This document shows positions 46,344-53,745 of a stretch of DNA of 64,000 bases, one piece after another; position 1 is the stretch's first letter; each line of letters opens with the position of its first letter. The position numbers and the translations under genes are program-made. Under the pieces are notes generated by a model that did no database searches, had not been told where the DNA came from, and saw nothing but the letters and a program-made list of their open reading frames with translations. The stretch spans positions 77 to 64,076 of the forward strand of contig JAGAHC010000008.1 of NCBI GenBank assembly GCA_017627275.1, given 5' to 3'. The stretch comes from Lachnospiraceae bacterium (lineage in GTDB: Bacteria; Bacillota; Clostridia; Lachnospirales; Lachnospiraceae).

Positions 46344-47450
46344 ATGCAGTCGGTCAGTGGAAACGCGGCTTACTATGAAGAACAGGAAAACAAGAATACG
46401 CTGAAGATGCGGGAGATCCTCTCTACTCTCCCGCCCTTTTTAAAGCAGTATTTCCGCGGGATCGCTGACCGTACGTCCGCAAGGACGCGGCTCGCCTATG
46501 CCTATGACCTGCATGTGTTCTTCGAATTCCTGCATACGACGAACCCCGCTCTCAAAAGCATCCCCATGACGGAATTTCCGCTCGATCTTCTGAATCAAAT
46601 CAAGAAGGAAGACATTGAGGAATTCCTGGAATACACGTCTTATTACCAGAAAGACACCAAGACCTATACCAACGGAGAACGGGGAAAGGCCAGAAAACTC
46701 TCCGCCATCCGCAGCATGTACCACTATTTTTACTGCTCGGAACTGATCGAAAAGGACATTGCCGCCCTCATCGAGATGCCCAAGCTCCACGAAAAGCCCA
46801 TTATCCGCATGGATGCCGACGAAGTATCCACCCTCTTAAACCAGGTCGAAAAAGGGACGGCGCTCACAAAGGCCCAGCTCAAATACCATAAGGCAACCAG
46901 GGTCCGCGACGTCGCCATGCTCACACTGATGCTCGGTACCGGGATCCGCGTCTCCGAATGCGTGGGACTGGATCTGAAGGATATCAACTTCAAGGAAAAC
47001 GGCATCCGCGTCCACAGGAAGGGCGGATATGATGCCATCGTCTACTTCGGCGACGAAGTGGCTGAAGCCCTGCAGGACTATCTGCAGGAGCGCAGAAATG
47101 TCATTCCGGAAAGCGGGCACGAAAACGCGCTCTTTCTGTCGATGCAGAATAAACGCATCACCGTCCGTGCCGTCGAGAAAATGGTCAAAAAGTACGCTTC
47201 CCTCGTAACGACCATGAAGAAGATCACCCCGCATAAACTGCGGAGCACCTACGGAACAAGTCTTTACCGGGAAACCGGAGACATCTATCTCGTGGCCGAT
47301 GTCCTCGGTCATAAGGACGTCAACACCACGAGAAAGCATTACGCGGCCATCGAAGAAGACAGACGAAAGAAGGCCGCCAATATCGTGAAACTCAGAGACA
47401 GGGAACAAAGGGAAGAAAACAAAGACGACTCCTCTTCTACTGCGGAATGA
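46344..47450 (+). CDS. Chromosomal Xer-type tyrosine recombinase
   Basis: GIRVSE, RKGG, HKLR, LGH, HY catalytic set; no mobile-element context. Confidence 0.88.
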   Translation: MQSVSGNAAYYEEQENKNTLKMREILSTLPPFLKQYFRGIADRTSARTRLAYAYDLHVFFEFLHTTNPALKSIPMTEFPLDLLNQIKKEDIEEFLEYTSYYQKDTKTYTNGERGKARKLSAIRSMYHYFYCSELIEKDIAALIEMPKLHEKPIIRMDADEVSTLLNQVEKGTALTKAQLKYHKATRVRDVAMLTLMLGTGIRVSECVGLDLKDINFKENGIRVHRKGGYDAIVYFGDEVAEALQDYLQERRNVIPESGHENALFLSMQNKRITVRAVEKMVKKYASLVTTMKKITPHKLRSTYGTSLYRETGDIYLVADVLGHKDVNTTRKHYAAIEEDRRKKAANIVKLRDREQREENKDDSSSTAE

Positions 47451-47990: not shown

Positions 47991-48608
47991 ATGGCCAAGG
48001 GAAGAATCAGTGAGAAACAACAGCAGATTCTCGATTATATCAAAGAAGAGATCCTGGCGAAGGGATATCCTCCGACCGTGCGGGAGATCTGTGAAAAGGT
48101 ACATTTGAAGTCCACCTCTTCCGTGCATTCGCATCTGGAGACACTTGAAAAGAACGGCTTTATCCGTCGTGACCCGACGAAGCCCCGTGCCATTGAGATC
48201 TGTGACGACAGTTTTCAAATGGTCCGCACCGAGATGGTCTCCATTCCCGTTGTCGGCCGCATCGCCGCCGGGGAGCCGATCCTGGCGGACCAGAACATCG
48301 AACAGTACTTCCCCGTTCCCGCGGAGATGATCCCGCAGGGGACGTCTTTTGCCATGCGGGTGCATGGGGATTCCATGATCAATGCCGGCATCTTTGACGG
48401 CGATCTGCTCTTTGCCAACTCTGCCGATACGGCGGAAAACGGCGAGATCGTCGTCGCGCTCATCGACGAGGAGGCCACCGTCAAGCGCTTCTACAAGGAA
48501 AAAGACAGGATCCGTCTGCAGCCGGAAAACGACTCCATGGATCCCATCTATGTGGATCATTGCCTTATCCTCGGGAAGATCTTCGGGGTCCTGCGCCTGA
48601 TGCGCTGA
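47991..48608 (+). CDS. lexA: SOS repressor LexA
   Basis: GYPPTVREI, VGRIAAGEP (AG cleavage site), GDSM, ATVKRFYKE. Confidence 0.97.
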   Translation: MAKGRISEKQQQILDYIKEEILAKGYPPTVREICEKVHLKSTSSVHSHLETLEKNGFIRRDPTKPRAIEICDDSFQMVRTEMVSIPVVGRIAAGEPILADQNIEQYFPVPAEMIPQGTSFAMRVHGDSMINAGIFDGDLLFANSADTAENGEIVVALIDEEATVKRFYKEKDRIRLQPENDSMDPIYVDHCLILGKIFGVLRLMR

Positions 48609-49089: not shown

Positions 49090-50337
49090 TTATTTCGATT
49101 GCTGATAATACGCATAGGTTTCTTCCGTCATCGGGTCAATGGGCGCTTCCTTTAACCTGAGATAGGTAAGCGTATCGGAAAGGATCATCAAAAGCGCTTC
49201 ATCAAGGTCCCGGAATGCCGCTTTCCGGATCTCCGGCAGGCGTTTTGCCAGATTCCGCCCGGGCTCAATATAATCCGCAATATACAGGATCTTTTCAAGC
49301 AGCGTCATAGCAGGTTTCCCGGTCGAATGACAGCGAATGGCGGAGAGGATCTCCTCGTCTTCCACACCGAAGGTCTGCCTGGCGATCACCGCCCCGGCCT
49401 TCGCATGCAAAAGCTCCTCGTTATCCCGCTCAATCTCGGAAACCGGAAGGCCGTTCTCCTCACAAAGCCGGATCTTATCCTCTTTGGAGAGGTATTTCCC
49501 GACATCATGCAAAAAACCGGCAAGTTCCGCCCTCTCAGGATCCGCGCCATGGACCAGGGAAAGCGCGTACGCCGTCCCCGCGACCCCTAAGCTGTGCACG
49601 AAGCGCTTGTAGGGGAGGATCTCCTCCACTTTATGGACGATCTCGAGCCTGTTTTCCCTGGAAAGCGCGATATTTTCATTTATCAACCCGGTCGGTAAAT
49701 TTGACCGATTGGATAATTCATCCTGATAAAGGCCTTTTTCCAGAATATAGCTTTCTACGGCAGCAGGCGTCAGAAAATGGATGCTCTCCCCTCTTGCCAC
49801 GCGGTCTCTGATCAGGGTGGATGAGATCCCGACAGAGAGGATCGGCAGCCGATGGATTCTGGCCCCGTATTCTCTCTGCAGTCTTTCTATGGTCTCTTGC
49901 AGTATCTCCTCTTCGACCTGGTCCTCCCGCACTGCCACACAGATCTCTGCGAGAGCAAAGATCGTTTCCGGCTTGTACCAGGTATGCATGTTGCAGAGCG
50001 TATCCGCTCCGACGATGAAGTAATAGACTGCGTCCGGATTCTCCTTCGCAAGCGCCTCCAGCGTATCCGCCGTATAGGTGTTGCCCTCCCGGCGGATCTC
50101 CATATCGCTCACGAAAAGGCCTTTTTCTCCGAGCGCGGAGAGCCTCGCCATGGTGAGGCGGTCGGAAGCCTTTGTCACCTTCTTCCCCATCTCTTCCTTC
50201 ATATAGGAATGCCCGGATGGCATCAGAAGGACTTTATCCAGGGAAAAAGCGCTTTTTGCTTCTTCCGCCAGAAGGAGGTGCGCATAATGAATGGGATCGA
50301 ACGTCCCGCCCAGAATTCCGATTTTTTCAGGAGTCAT
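49090..50337 (-). CDS. nadD: Fused NadD nicotinate-nucleotide adenylyltransferase and YqeK HD-domain Ap4A hydrolase
   Basis: GGTFDPIH..H, FIVGAD, ISSTLIR, then KRFVHSLGV, LHDVGK, IRCHSTG, ADYIEPGR in one frame. Confidence 0.92.
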   Translation of the reverse strand: MTPEKIGILGGTFDPIHYAHLLLAEEAKSAFSLDKVLLMPSGHSYMKEEMGKKVTKASDRLTMARLSALGEKGLFVSDMEIRREGNTYTADTLEALAKENPDAVYYFIVGADTLCNMHTWYKPETIFALAEICVAVREDQVEEEILQETIERLQREYGARIHRLPILSVGISSTLIRDRVARGESIHFLTPAAVESYILEKGLYQDELSNRSNLPTGLINENIALSRENRLEIVHKVEEILPYKRFVHSLGVAGTAYALSLVHGADPERAELAGFLHDVGKYLSKEDKIRLCEENGLPVSEIERDNEELLHAKAGAVIARQTFGVEDEEILSAIRCHSTGKPAMTLLEKILYIADYIEPGRNLAKRLPEIRKAAFRDLDEALLMILSDTLTYLRLKEAPIDPMTEETYAYYQQSK

Positions 50338-51625
50338 AGTATTCAAACGCGTGCCCGTAGATCCTTACGGTGTCTCCTTCCCGGATTCCCAATGCCTTTA
50401 ATTCGTCGGCAATGCCATTTTCTTCGATAAATTTCTGGAAGAACATAAATCCCTTCTCGGTTTCCAGATTGGTATAGCCAAGCATCCTTTCGACGCGCGG
50501 TCCTTCGACCAAGAAGTCCTTCGTCTTTTTGTCCCTCGTCACGGTAAACGGCAGTTCTTCCCTGGTCAGCGCCTCTTCCGGATCGTATTCCTGCGCATAG
50601 ACGATGCTGTCCTCTTCCTGTGTGCTGACGATCTCATGAGCCTTGGAAAGGAGGTCTCTCACGCCCTTTCCGGTGGCTGCGCTGATCGAAAAGACCGGCA
50701 CATGCAAAGGATCCAGCTTCTCATGGAGCCTTTGCAGGATCTCCTCTTCCTCTTCCGGCAGCAAAAGATCGGTCTTGTTGGCGGCAAGGATCTGTTTTTT
50801 CTTTGTGAGGTCCGCATTGTACTTTGCCAGTTCCGCATTGATCGCATCGATGTCGTTTAACGGATCTCTGCCTTCTAAACCCGCGGCATCGATCACATGG
50901 ATCAGGACTCTCGTCCGCTCGATGTGCTGCAGGAAATCATGTCCGAGCCCTGCGCCTTCCGCGGCGCCTTCGATCAGCCCCGGGATGTCCGCCATGACAA
51001 AGCTTCTTTCGTCATCCAGATCCACCACGCCGAGCATCGGCGCAAGCGTCGTAAAGTGGTAATCGGCGACTTTCGGCCTGGCATTGGTCGACTCGGAAAG
51101 GAGCGTCGATTTTCCGACATTCGGAAAGCCGACGAGTCCGACATCCGCGATCAGTTTCAGCTCCAGCAACAGGTTCAGTTCCCGTGCCGGCTGTCCCGGC
51201 TGTGCGTATTTCGGCGCCTGCATGGTGCTGGTCGCGTAATGCTGGTTGCCGTTGCCGCCGTGGCCGCCCTTTAACAGCACAAAGCGTTTGGTGTCCCCTG
51301 ACAGATCGACGATCACCTTCCCGCTTTCCGCTTCTTTCACCAGCGTCCCCTTCGGGAGCTTCAGGACCAGATCGTTTCCCTTCTTCCCGGCCTGTTTTTT
51401 CTTTCTGCCGTCTTCGCCGGGCTCCGCCTTGAACTTCTGGTTATGACGGTACGCCGAGAGCGTGTTTACGCCCTCATCCACTTCCAGGATGATGCTGCCG
51501 CCGTTGCCGCCGTCGCCGCCGTCCGGCCCGCCGTTGGGCACGTATTTTTCCCGGCGGAACGACACATGGCCGTCGCCGCCCTTTCCGCTGATGACTGTGA
51601 TTCTTACCTTATCCGCAAATGCCAT
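50327..51625 (-). CDS. obgE: GTPase ObgE
   Basis: Gly-rich Obg fold, GFPNVGKST, DIPGLIEGA, NKTD, C-terminal OCT domain. Confidence 0.97.
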   Translation of the reverse strand: MAFADKVRITVISGKGGDGHVSFRREKYVPNGGPDGGDGGNGGSIILEVDEGVNTLSAYRHNQKFKAEPGEDGRKKKQAGKKGNDLVLKLPKGTLVKEAESGKVIVDLSGDTKRFVLLKGGHGGNGNQHYATSTMQAPKYAQPGQPARELNLLLELKLIADVGLVGFPNVGKSTLLSESTNARPKVADYHFTTLAPMLGVVDLDDERSFVMADIPGLIEGAAEGAGLGHDFLQHIERTRVLIHVIDAAGLEGRDPLNDIDAINAELAKYNADLTKKKQILAANKTDLLLPEEEEEILQRLHEKLDPLHVPVFSISAATGKGVRDLLSKAHEIVSTQEEDSIVYAQEYDPEEALTREELPFTVTRDKKTKDFLVEGPRVERMLGYTNLETEKGFMFFQKFIEENGIADELKALGIREGDTVRIYGHAFEYYDS

Positions 51626-51650: not shown

Positions 51651-52313
51651 TTATTCCAGATACGTCGCGTCGCCCAGGCCTTCGAACCGGATGTCCTTTA
51701 CCTTCTTGTCCGCGAGATCGACATACACATCGAATTCTTCCCAGCGCTCCTTTGGGACTTCCCCGTCAAAGTGGATGTCATAGGCAAATGCCCCGTATTC
51801 GAGCCAGACTTCCAACGTCTCGTAGTTATAGAACATGCCGCTTCTCCAGCCGGCGTCGAAGAGTTCCTGCCCGGTCTTGCCGATAAGCTGATCCAGCTCT
51901 TCCTGTGACAGGATGGTCTCATCCAGGTTTTCGACTGTTTTTACGGGGACATCCCCGATCAGCTGCGCCACGTTTTTATCGTAGTCGTCGTCAAATTCGA
52001 GCGCAAACAGCTGATCCGAAAGGTCCTTTGTCAGATCCGCCACAACGCGATAGGTGACGCCGTCCTTCTGAAACGCGTAGACAAAGTTTTCCTCCGTAAA
52101 CGACTGCTGTTCCGTATACTCATCCTTATCGGCGATCGAAAGCGCATCGCCGACGGTCTTGATGGCGGAAAGGTCAAGACCGGCCGCTTCCCCCGTACTT
52201 TCTTCGGAAGCCTGTTCCGTACTGCCTGCCGTATTCTCTGCCGTTGCGGCGCCGCACCCTGCCGTCAGCAGAAACGCCATGGCCGCGATCATAAGGATCA
52301 TTGTTTTTTTCAT
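51651..52313 (-). CDS. Hypothetical acidic lipoprotein
   Basis: MKKTMILMIAAMAFLLTAGC lipobox; RBS AAAGGAG; start 52313 or 52319. Confidence 0.75.
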   Translation of the reverse strand: MKKTMILMIAAMAFLLTAGCGAATAENTAGSTEQASEESTGEAAGLDLSAIKTVGDALSIADKDEYTEQQSFTEENFVYAFQKDGVTYRVVADLTKDLSDQLFALEFDDDYDKNVAQLIGDVPVKTVENLDETILSQEELDQLIGKTGQELFDAGWRSGMFYNYETLEVWLEYGAFAYDIHFDGEVPKERWEEFDVYVDLADKKVKDIRFEGLGDATYLE

Positions 52314-52388
52314 CTTCATTCTCTCCTTTGTGACCAAAAATTCTGTCAGTATCAATTGTAACCTTATTGCCCCCAATTTCAAAGGAAT

Positions 52389-52420
52389 AAAAAAACAGGC
52401 CCCGCAAAGGCGGGACCTGT
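52389..52420 (-). terminator. Terminator after rpmA
   Basis: Minus-strand stem ACAGGTCCCGC/GCGGGGCCTGT followed by T-run. Confidence 0.7.
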
Positions 52421-52441
52421 CAGTGTTTCGTTGAAAAACGA

Positions 52442-52702
52442 TTATTCCTCCACCGGATAGACGTTTGCCTTGGTGTTGAACTTGCCGGCATGCTCGAAAC
52501 GAAGGATGCCGTCCTTCATTGCAAATAAGGTGTCATCACCGCCGCGGCCTACGTTCAGACCCGGATGGATCTTGGTTCCACGCTGTCTGTGAAGAATATT
52601 GCCGGCCTTGACGAACTGTCCGTCGGCACGCTTCGCGCCCAGTCTCTTCGCATTTGAGTCGCGGCCGTTCTTTGTGGAGCCCATACCTTTTTTATGAGCC
52701 AT
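52442..52702 (-). CDS. rpmA: 50S ribosomal protein L27 without N-terminal extension
   Basis: [16 protein letters not shown]...[10 protein letters not shown]; in-frame TGA five codons upstream of ATG. Confidence 0.97.
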
Positions 52703-52742
52703 GATAATCTCCCTTCAAATCAATCAGATCGAACTGCTTTCG

Positions 52743-53048
52743 TCAGATCGAAATACTTTCGATCTTTACGCGTGTAAAAGGCTGTCTGTGACCGTTCTTC
52801 TTGTGATACCCTTTTTTGGGCTTGTAACGGTAGACAACGACTTTTTTCTGCTTGCCCTGTTCCATGACGGTAGCGGACACGCTGGCGGCCTTCACATCAG
52901 CGCCGACCTTTAAACTGTCCCCGCCCACTGCCAGGACGTCGTCGAACTTCACAGTATCGCCGGTTTCGGCTTCAAGCTTCTCGACTTCGATGATATCGCC
53001 TTCGGAAACCTTATACTGCTTTCCGCCTGTTGCAATGATTGCGTACAT
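52743..53048 (-). CDS. rplU: 50S ribosomal protein L21
   Basis: [14 protein letters not shown]...KNGHRQPFT; RBS GGGAGG. Confidence 0.97.
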
Positions 53049-53067
53049 ATCGGTACCTCCCTTTCTA

Positions 53068-53183
53068 AAGACTCGCTGATTACGGTAAACAGAACGATCT
53101 GTTTTTTTAGCCCGGACTGCAGTACCAACAATCCGTAGCCGCGCCCATAGCGCATAGAACCTCACCAAGCGGCATACCGTAAT
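53068..53183 (-). ncRNA. Probable L21-leader cis-regulatory RNA
   Basis: 5' UTR of rplU closed by ATTACGGTA/TACCGTAAT; ends CAGCGAGTC like Firmicutes L21 leaders. Confidence 0.55.
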
Positions 53184-53212
53184 AATCTAGCATTATCACG
53201 GGAAAAAGTCAA
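53184..53212 (-). promoter_or_regulatory. rplU promoter
   Basis: TTGACT-17-TAGATT with TGc extension. Confidence 0.7.
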
Positions 53213-53214
53213 AT

Positions 53215-53745
53215 CTATCTTTCCGAAATATCCTTGTTGATCATTTCCAGATACGGCACCAGGACGCCCTGTTTTTTCGGAAGGATGTAGGTCTGATCGA
53301 GCTCGTCGAACCGGAAGCTCTTCCTTCCGCCCTTTTCCGCGCGCTCCCAGAACGGCAGAAAGTGCCGAAGCGGCAGGTAATAATACAGATCCTCCCCGCT
53401 GTAATAGATCAGGAAGAAGGCGATCCCGTCCTGCGCTTCGAATTCCTTCATGAATTCCACCTGATGGGGGTGGATATTCTGGAGCGCGAAGGTCTTTTCC
53501 GCGGATTCCTTAGCATCAAAACAGACCGGGATCCCCTGCACCGCACCGATGTAGTCGACCGTGCTCTTCTGGTCAAAGTACGCCAGTGTGATGTGTCTTG
53601 TCGCATTATCGATCTGGACCGGCGTGATCGGGGTCGGCACCTTCTGGATCAGCGCCAGCTTCCCTTCCCGGTACTTTTCATTGGTCCGGTTGATCATCTC
53701 TTCGAGGACGCTGCCCCGCAGTCCCCTGGAATTCCAAGTAGGCAT
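53215..53745 (-). CDS. recU: Holliday junction resolvase RecU
   Basis: GSVLEEMIN, QKVPTP, STVDY.G, FDAKE. Confidence 0.93.
   Translation of the reverse strand: MPTWNSRGLRGSVLEEMINRTNEKYREGKLALIQKVPTPITPVQIDNATRHITLAYFDQKSTVDYIGAVQGIPVCFDAKESAEKTFALQNIHPHQVEFMKEFEAQDGIAFFLIYYSGEDLYYYLPLRHFLPFWERAEKGGRKSFRFDELDQTYILPKKQGVLVPYLEMINKDISER

Follow-up and report, generated by a model that had tools for sequence, protein, structure and literature searches.

The genes for ribosomal proteins bL21 (rplU) and bL27 (rpmA) lie side by side on the minus strand of an ordinary chromosomal region: the window, by which we mean the entire 64-kb stretch of DNA analysed, also carries ilvD, an ilvB-like gene, mutS, mutL, miaA, mreBCD, PBP2, rodA, sepF, lspA, lexA and rsfS, together with a nadD-yqeK fusion, obg, recU, a topoisomerase IV/gyrase-like pair and degV. 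Both ribosomal proteins are genuine, with Pfam scores far beyond the curated cut-offs; the PF00829 match takes in the full profile (positions 1-99 of 99), and the PF01016 match runs over profile positions 1-71, starting from residue 2 of the rpmA product. A GGGAGG Shine-Dalgarno-like site is found 6 nt 5′ of the rplU ATG, and rpmA, adjacent and on the same strand, appears to possess a ribosome-binding site of its own (AGGGAG), which is the arrangement of a leaderless two-gene operon. The frame upstream of rpmA reads TGA AGG GAG ATT ATC ATG, and since this TGA is in frame, 15 nt before the start codon, no leader can be translated in front of L27, which begins directly with MAHKKG. A preliminary description of this DNA had placed 40 nt between the rplU stop and the rpmA ATG and had held that L27, starting at MAHKKG behind its own Shine-Dalgarno site, could not be extended upstream; the sequence agrees with both statements.

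With a promoter-like site before rplU and a terminator-like hairpin after rpmA (Table 1), the two genes look like a self-contained two-gene operon. The hairpin is a strong one, and when positions 52300-53300 were scanned with Rfam at a permissive threshold it also drew weak matches of the terminator type; the Rfam L21 leader, sought 5′ of rplU, gave no match at the gathering score. No deletion scar was recognised in the 40-nt spacer, save for a 10-nt direct repeat, TTCGATCTGA, one copy of which lies at the rplU stop codon and the other in the spacer; this repeat is missing from the 18-nt spacer of the sibling species described below, and could be a small duplication or the trace of the rearrangement.

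As the window is a metagenomic contig, it might be argued that a chimeric contig or a collapsed region has dropped prp, the gene for the L27-processing protease, the more so as many co-resident species have near-identical L27 cores, and loose ends encode leaders of the MLKISMQFF type. Such an assembly or binning error is scarcely credible here. Logan contigs from two other runs (X1 and X2; 349 nt, 0 differences) cover positions 52670-53018, from within rplU (most of which is included) across the spacer into the start of rpmA, and their identity across the junction indicates that the arrangement is not an assembly artefact; the same arrangement is, moreover, present in the sibling species from two further samples.

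Table 1. Features of the rplU-rpmA region and of other parts of the window mentioned in the text.
Feature	Position	Strand	Description
rplU	52743..53048	-	bL21, 101 aa; ATG 53048-53046, TGA ends at 52743; PF00829 Ribosomal_L21p, E 7e-41
rplU-rpmA spacer	52703..52742	-	40 nt; in-frame TGA and AGGGAG Shine-Dalgarno-like site
rpmA	52442..52702	-	bL27 without leader, 86 aa; PF01016 Ribosomal_L27, E 1e-34
Promoter-like site in recU-rplU spacer	53184..53212	-	TTGACT-17-TAGATT (with TG); consensus match alone
Intrinsic-terminator-like hairpin	52394..52421	-	12-bp stem with 8 G-C pairs, then T run; 20 nt past rpmA stop
Direct repeat TTCGATCTGA	52703-52760	-	10 nt; one copy at rplU stop codon, the second 9 nt downstream of it
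Lipoprotein-like gene	51651-52316	-	about 221 aa; between rpmA and obg
Promoter-like site of lipoprotein-like gene	52382..52355	-	
nadD-yqeK fusion	49090-50346	-	418 aa; PF01467 (nicotinate-nucleotide adenylyltransferase-like) and PF01966 (HD domain)
Tyrosine recombinase and adjoining lexA	46344-47450 and 47991-48608	+	recombinase with PF00589 and SAM-like N-terminal domain

We searched for prp with a profile HMM built from 42 ORFs that occupy the rplU-rpmA gap of related loci; three of these ORFs were confirmed as PF04327 Peptidase_Prp with E-values of 1e-26 to 1e-28. The six-frame translation of the whole 64-kb window yielded no match (best E 0.91), and the same profile recovered all 43 Prp genes in the Obg-anchored loci L001-L080. 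Neither of the elements on which Prp-dependent maturation of L27 relies is therefore found at the operon, there being no leader and no prp between rplU and rpmA, and the co-loss of leader and prp at this site is well supported; the absence of prp from the operon had already been pointed out in the preliminary description.

The position of prp in other genomes bears on whether it could have been retained elsewhere. All 43 Prp genes in the Obg-anchored loci are located between rplU and a leader-encoding rpmA, as are 82 of the 84 in loci found with a 4-sequence Prp alignment (here next to a long rpmA), the other two being cut by contig ends. Because 125 of the 127 Prp genes in the two sets together occupy this position, prp is likely to be missing from the rest of the genome as well, although the search itself covered the 64-kb window. 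We also considered that prp might have been relocated and kept because Prp has further targets, for instance phage proteins or a leader on FlhB, with only the L27 leader deleted. Spirochaetes and some Thermotogae, in which L27 is leaderless as it is in the window, do retain Prp without long L27, possibly for cleavage of FlhB, the proposed substrate (PMC9405229), and the portion of the genome searched here amounts to 64 kb, from which, as from the operon, prp is absent. Relocation is nonetheless quite unlikely in view of the fixed position of prp, the lack of any Prp gene near 127 leaderless rpmA genes, of which the surrounding 8-20 kb were inspected, and the lack of a Prp-type cleavage motif in any ORF of the window. 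The Prp of the leader-bearing locus L005, used as a query in a single-protein scan, retrieved four loci, none of which belongs to the MAG of L174, the leaderless sister of L005; as the scan needs exact 8-mers, this is a weak negative.

The organism is an uncultured member of the Lachnospiraceae of the ruminant gut. The window sequence was found only in gut metagenomes (sheep, goat, bovine and other), and the closest species genomes are those of uncultured Lachnospiraceae from ruminants and rabbits, with a best Obg identity of 67%; the species, and probably the genus, is missing from the species-genome collection. Among the best 120 L27 homologues, about 110 possess a leader of the MLxLNLQFF type, and seven, including that of the window itself, are leaderless. 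The nearest L27 (P0002, 88% identical) belongs to the sibling lineage, whose contigs from two further samples (L081 and L082) have the gene order recU-rplU-rpmA, an 18-nt spacer and an L27 starting with MAHKKG. A further L27, P0004 on a 523-bp ENA contig, has 86 aa and 87% identity to that of the window, but its N-terminus is altered to MGRSKGGSGAKNG; the variant may be real, or it may stem from a sequencing error or a frameshift. The segment altered in it is the part of L27 that reaches the peptidyl transferase centre.

The nearest relatives outside the clade formed by the window and its sibling (L001, L014, L002, L003-L012 and L213-L226) all carry a PF04327 Prp gene between rplU and rpmA, and all have a long L27 with the leader MLxLNLQFF↓AHKKG (also MLNLSLQFF↓A; the arrow marks the cleavage site). 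Their rplU-rpmA gap of 360-430 nt is filled by a prp of 320-340 nt. In a neighbour-joining tree of Obg (34 taxa, 300 bootstraps), the window was joined with L081 in 100% of replicates and this pair with the leader-bearing L001 in 76%, while leaderless L174 was joined with leader-bearing L005 in 98%. The Lachnospiraceae formed a cluster with 100% support, and a single clade comprising all leaderless Lachnospiraceae received 0%, with the tree showing at least three independent losses inside the family. Since the nearest relatives all carry prp and the leader, and the Obg tree nests the window among them, the state of the window is, as judged from these sequence comparisons, a secondary loss, which is common to one sibling lineage and independent of the other losses in Lachnospiraceae. 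Alignment of L27 N-termini and rplU-rpmA synteny across relatives, proposed in the preliminary description as a check, thus maps the loss to the window and L081/L082, and the possibility raised there, that short L27 without prp is ancestral in the family, is answered in favour of a derived state.

The short state might still be ancestral in this particular branch, or the rplU-rpmA operon might have been transferred from leaderless Clostridia such as Oscillospirales. Gut Clostridia that share the habitat abound in leaderless operons, and within the tree of Lachnospiraceae the short and the long state alternate; the spacer displays no deletion scar, and bootstrap support for joining the window clade to long-type L001 is no higher than 76%. 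Against this, the L21 and L27 sequences of the window are most similar to those of long-type Lachnospiraceae (77% identity to L001, 74% to L014 and 72-74% to L003-L012), as opposed to at most 71% for the other leaderless lineages and at most 67% for short-type Oscillospirales, which argues for deletion in place rather than transfer of the operon. The flanking recU and obg are native, with similarity giving the same neighbours, and leader and Prp represent the older state, as they are common to Bacilli, Clostridia and other phyla (PMC9405229). We regard an ancestral or transferred short operon as very unlikely.

Very probably, then, an ancestral Firmicute module consisting of prp and an L27 leader of about nine codons was lost by deletion, and the two-gene rplU-rpmA operon is what was left. 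After such a deletion, translation of L27 would begin at M-AHKKG, served by a ribosome-binding site of its own. Methionine aminopeptidase is expected to remove the initiator Met when residue 2 is Ala, and Met1 would presumably be cut off by this enzyme, so that the mature N-terminus would come out the same as after Prp cleavage in the relatives and a dedicated protease would become unnecessary. Residues 2-26 of the window L27 are indeed the very sequence with which long L27s such as P0011 begin once their leader has been cleaved off; the ribosome would accordingly get the same protein, and its assembly would presumably be normal without the leader. A comparison of short and long sister lineages revealed no obvious convergent substitutions in mature L27 or L21.

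Leaderless rplU-rpmA operons of the E. coli type are found in most bacteria, and the window resembles them in having adjacent genes, no prp, and an L27 that starts with M-A-H-K-K and presumably acquires its mature end by Met removal alone. It differs from them in that its state is secondary and arose inside a family with leader and Prp, and in that its mature L27 is of the Firmicute type. With the Firmicute rplU-prp(ysxB)-rpmA arrangement of S. aureus, B. subtilis, S. pneumoniae and C. difficile it shares the same flanking genes, including obg downstream, as well as a mature L27 N-terminus that is the same as in its closest Lachnospiraceae relatives, but it is devoid of both defining parts, prp and the MLxLNLQFF leader. 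Papers up to 2026 ascribe an L27 leader and Prp to all Firmicutes, call the role of the leader unknown, and promote Prp as an antibiotic target (PMC9405229, PMC12324487, preprint 10.64898/2026.08.10.744006); every species with long L27 is stated to have Prp (PMC9405229). We found no mention of Clostridia lacking both leader and Prp in PMC9405229 or PMC12324487, although Wall et al. 2015/2017 may already tabulate exceptions.

Experiments in other Firmicutes give some indication of how easily the leader can be dispensed with. In S. aureus, pre-truncated L27 failed to support growth (as cited in PMC12324487), so that doing without the leader need not be neutral for a Firmicute. S. pneumoniae with an engineered rpmA lacking the leader is viable, with slow growth (PMC12324487), which by analogy makes a bypass physiologically possible. 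In both this strain and the window, a Firmicute L27 is made without a leader; the laboratory strain, however, grows more slowly and keeps prp, whereas the natural lineages have lost prp too and are presumably adapted to its absence. Some pneumococci carry an alternative protease, Rrp (PMC12324487).

To see how widespread the leaderless arrangement is, we searched species genomes, each species being represented once, for sequences that would encode a leaderless rpmA start, and obtained at least 120 loci. Among the 120 matches listed, every L27 is leaderless and no Prp is encoded within the 8-kb locus, rpmA follows rplU at a distance of 19-230 nt wherever the locus holds both genes, and 85 of 120 bear Clostridia-type names. 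They include Faecalibacterium, Gemmiger formicilis DFI.6.10, Subdoligranulum, Ruthenibacterium lactatiformans 585-1, Anaerotruncus sp. G3(2012) and many Oscillospiraceae, one of them with a complete genome (CP176394.1), and, within Lachnospiraceae, Cuneatibacter sp. NSJ-177, Eubacterium sp. CAG:38 and three MAGs. Of about 50 Obg-anchored Firmicute loci, six are leaderless and without prp, and a further leaderless lineage (GCA_003704445.1 and relatives) has the order pth-rplU-rpmA-trpS-obg. The named examples from Faecalibacterium, G. formicilis, R. lactatiformans, Anaerotruncus, Cuneatibacter and Eubacterium sp. CAG:38 share with the window the succession of rplU, a short spacer within the above range and an rpmA whose product starts with MAHKKG, with no Prp nearby; they belong to independent lineages, whereas the window clade is nested among leader-bearing Lachnospiraceae.

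The window is thus one of many parallel losses in Clostridia, and a modest, ordinary example of them. The earlier statement that this lineage has lost both leader and protease holds in the sense that the loss at the operon is derived, but the lineage is not special in this respect, as the same has happened in parallel in many Clostridia; likewise, the statement that Firmicutes normally have rplU-prp-rpmA applies to Bacilli and many Clostridia, but not to a large share of gut Clostridia. Taken alone, the window adds one more bacterium with a common arrangement and matters little. The wider pattern is worth recording, as it contradicts the “all Firmicutes” statement of PMC9405229 and PMC12324487: with large parts of gut Clostridia lacking leader and Prp, the leader is not a general requirement of ribosome assembly in Firmicutes. 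What compensates for the absence of the module could be sought in pairs of sister lineages of which one has it and the other does not, some of these being in culture, and an inhibitor of Prp would be expected to spare leaderless commensals without Prp.

Two side observations concern the leaderless loci. In four uncultured Oscillospiraceae (L057, L073, L078 and L080), L27 is leaderless and starts with MASKKG, and the rplU-rpmA gap of 190-310 nt contains an ORF of 34-63 aa ending in ...KK(N/D/S)ELL(E/D)(Y/L)AA(S/A)K(G/N)(I/V)KVSAS(S/A)TK(A/G)(V/A)IIEAIEA..., a sequence reminiscent of SAP/HeH-like helix motifs. The L21 and L27 sequences of L173, from a record titled Alloprevotella sp., cluster with Oscillospiraceae in the tree, and the contig has probably been mis-binned.

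The preliminary description had also proposed looking for LQFF/A-type sites in phages. When viral contigs were searched for sequences that would encode M-N-L-Q-F-F-A, at least 120 matches (loci L292-L411) were obtained. Among the viral matches listed, none is L27; most are acidic, scaffolding-like proteins of about 200 aa in which a short leader is followed by MNLQFF↓AE, and a few are capsid-sized (about 340-400 aa). The viral leaders end in MNLQ(F/Y)F↓A(E/D), like the Prp cleavage site of L27. The commonest gut type among these matches is 66% identical to a protein of AC844P2, a cultured phage of Anaerostipes caccae, which is itself a member of Lachnospiraceae; this scaffold-like protein (L412, OP172636.1, 2473-3099) starts with MFKNTIPMNLQYF↓AEPG and is encoded just upstream of a capsid-sized gene. 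In S. aureus, phage 80alpha depends on host Prp (PMC5744158), and, by analogy, phages of the AC844P2 type plausibly do so as well; the distribution of the motif suggests a wide dependence of Firmicute phages on host Prp. Faecalibacterium phage FP_Mushu, a phage of a host without Prp, has no Prp-type motif, but as it is Mu-like and encodes its own protease, it makes no fair comparison. Sites of the kind predicted are thus present in viral contigs and in AC844P2, but nothing ties them to the host represented by the window, and the idea that loss of prp has removed a phage host factor in its lineage is speculative, if plausible. It could be supposed further that phages have driven the repeated, independent loss of Prp together with the L27 leader among gut Clostridia, and that this loss is adaptive, with deletion of prp blocking capsid maturation and deletion of the leader acting as the enabling compensatory step; we hold this to be improbable.

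Several other features of the window deserve brief mention. The lipoprotein-like gene between rpmA and obg encodes a protein without a Pfam match whose start, MKMKKTMILMIAAMAFLLTAGC, is a putative signal peptide that includes a lipobox; the gene is preceded by its own promoter-like site. On the sibling contig L081, obg comes directly after rpmA, indicating that this gene is a lineage-specific insertion. The nadD-yqeK fusion has a TTG start that overlaps the end of obg by 20 nt. Finally, the tyrosine recombinase, which may mark a mobile element or be a housekeeping enzyme of the Xer type, is separated from lexA by an unannotated ORF of 133 aa on the opposite strand.
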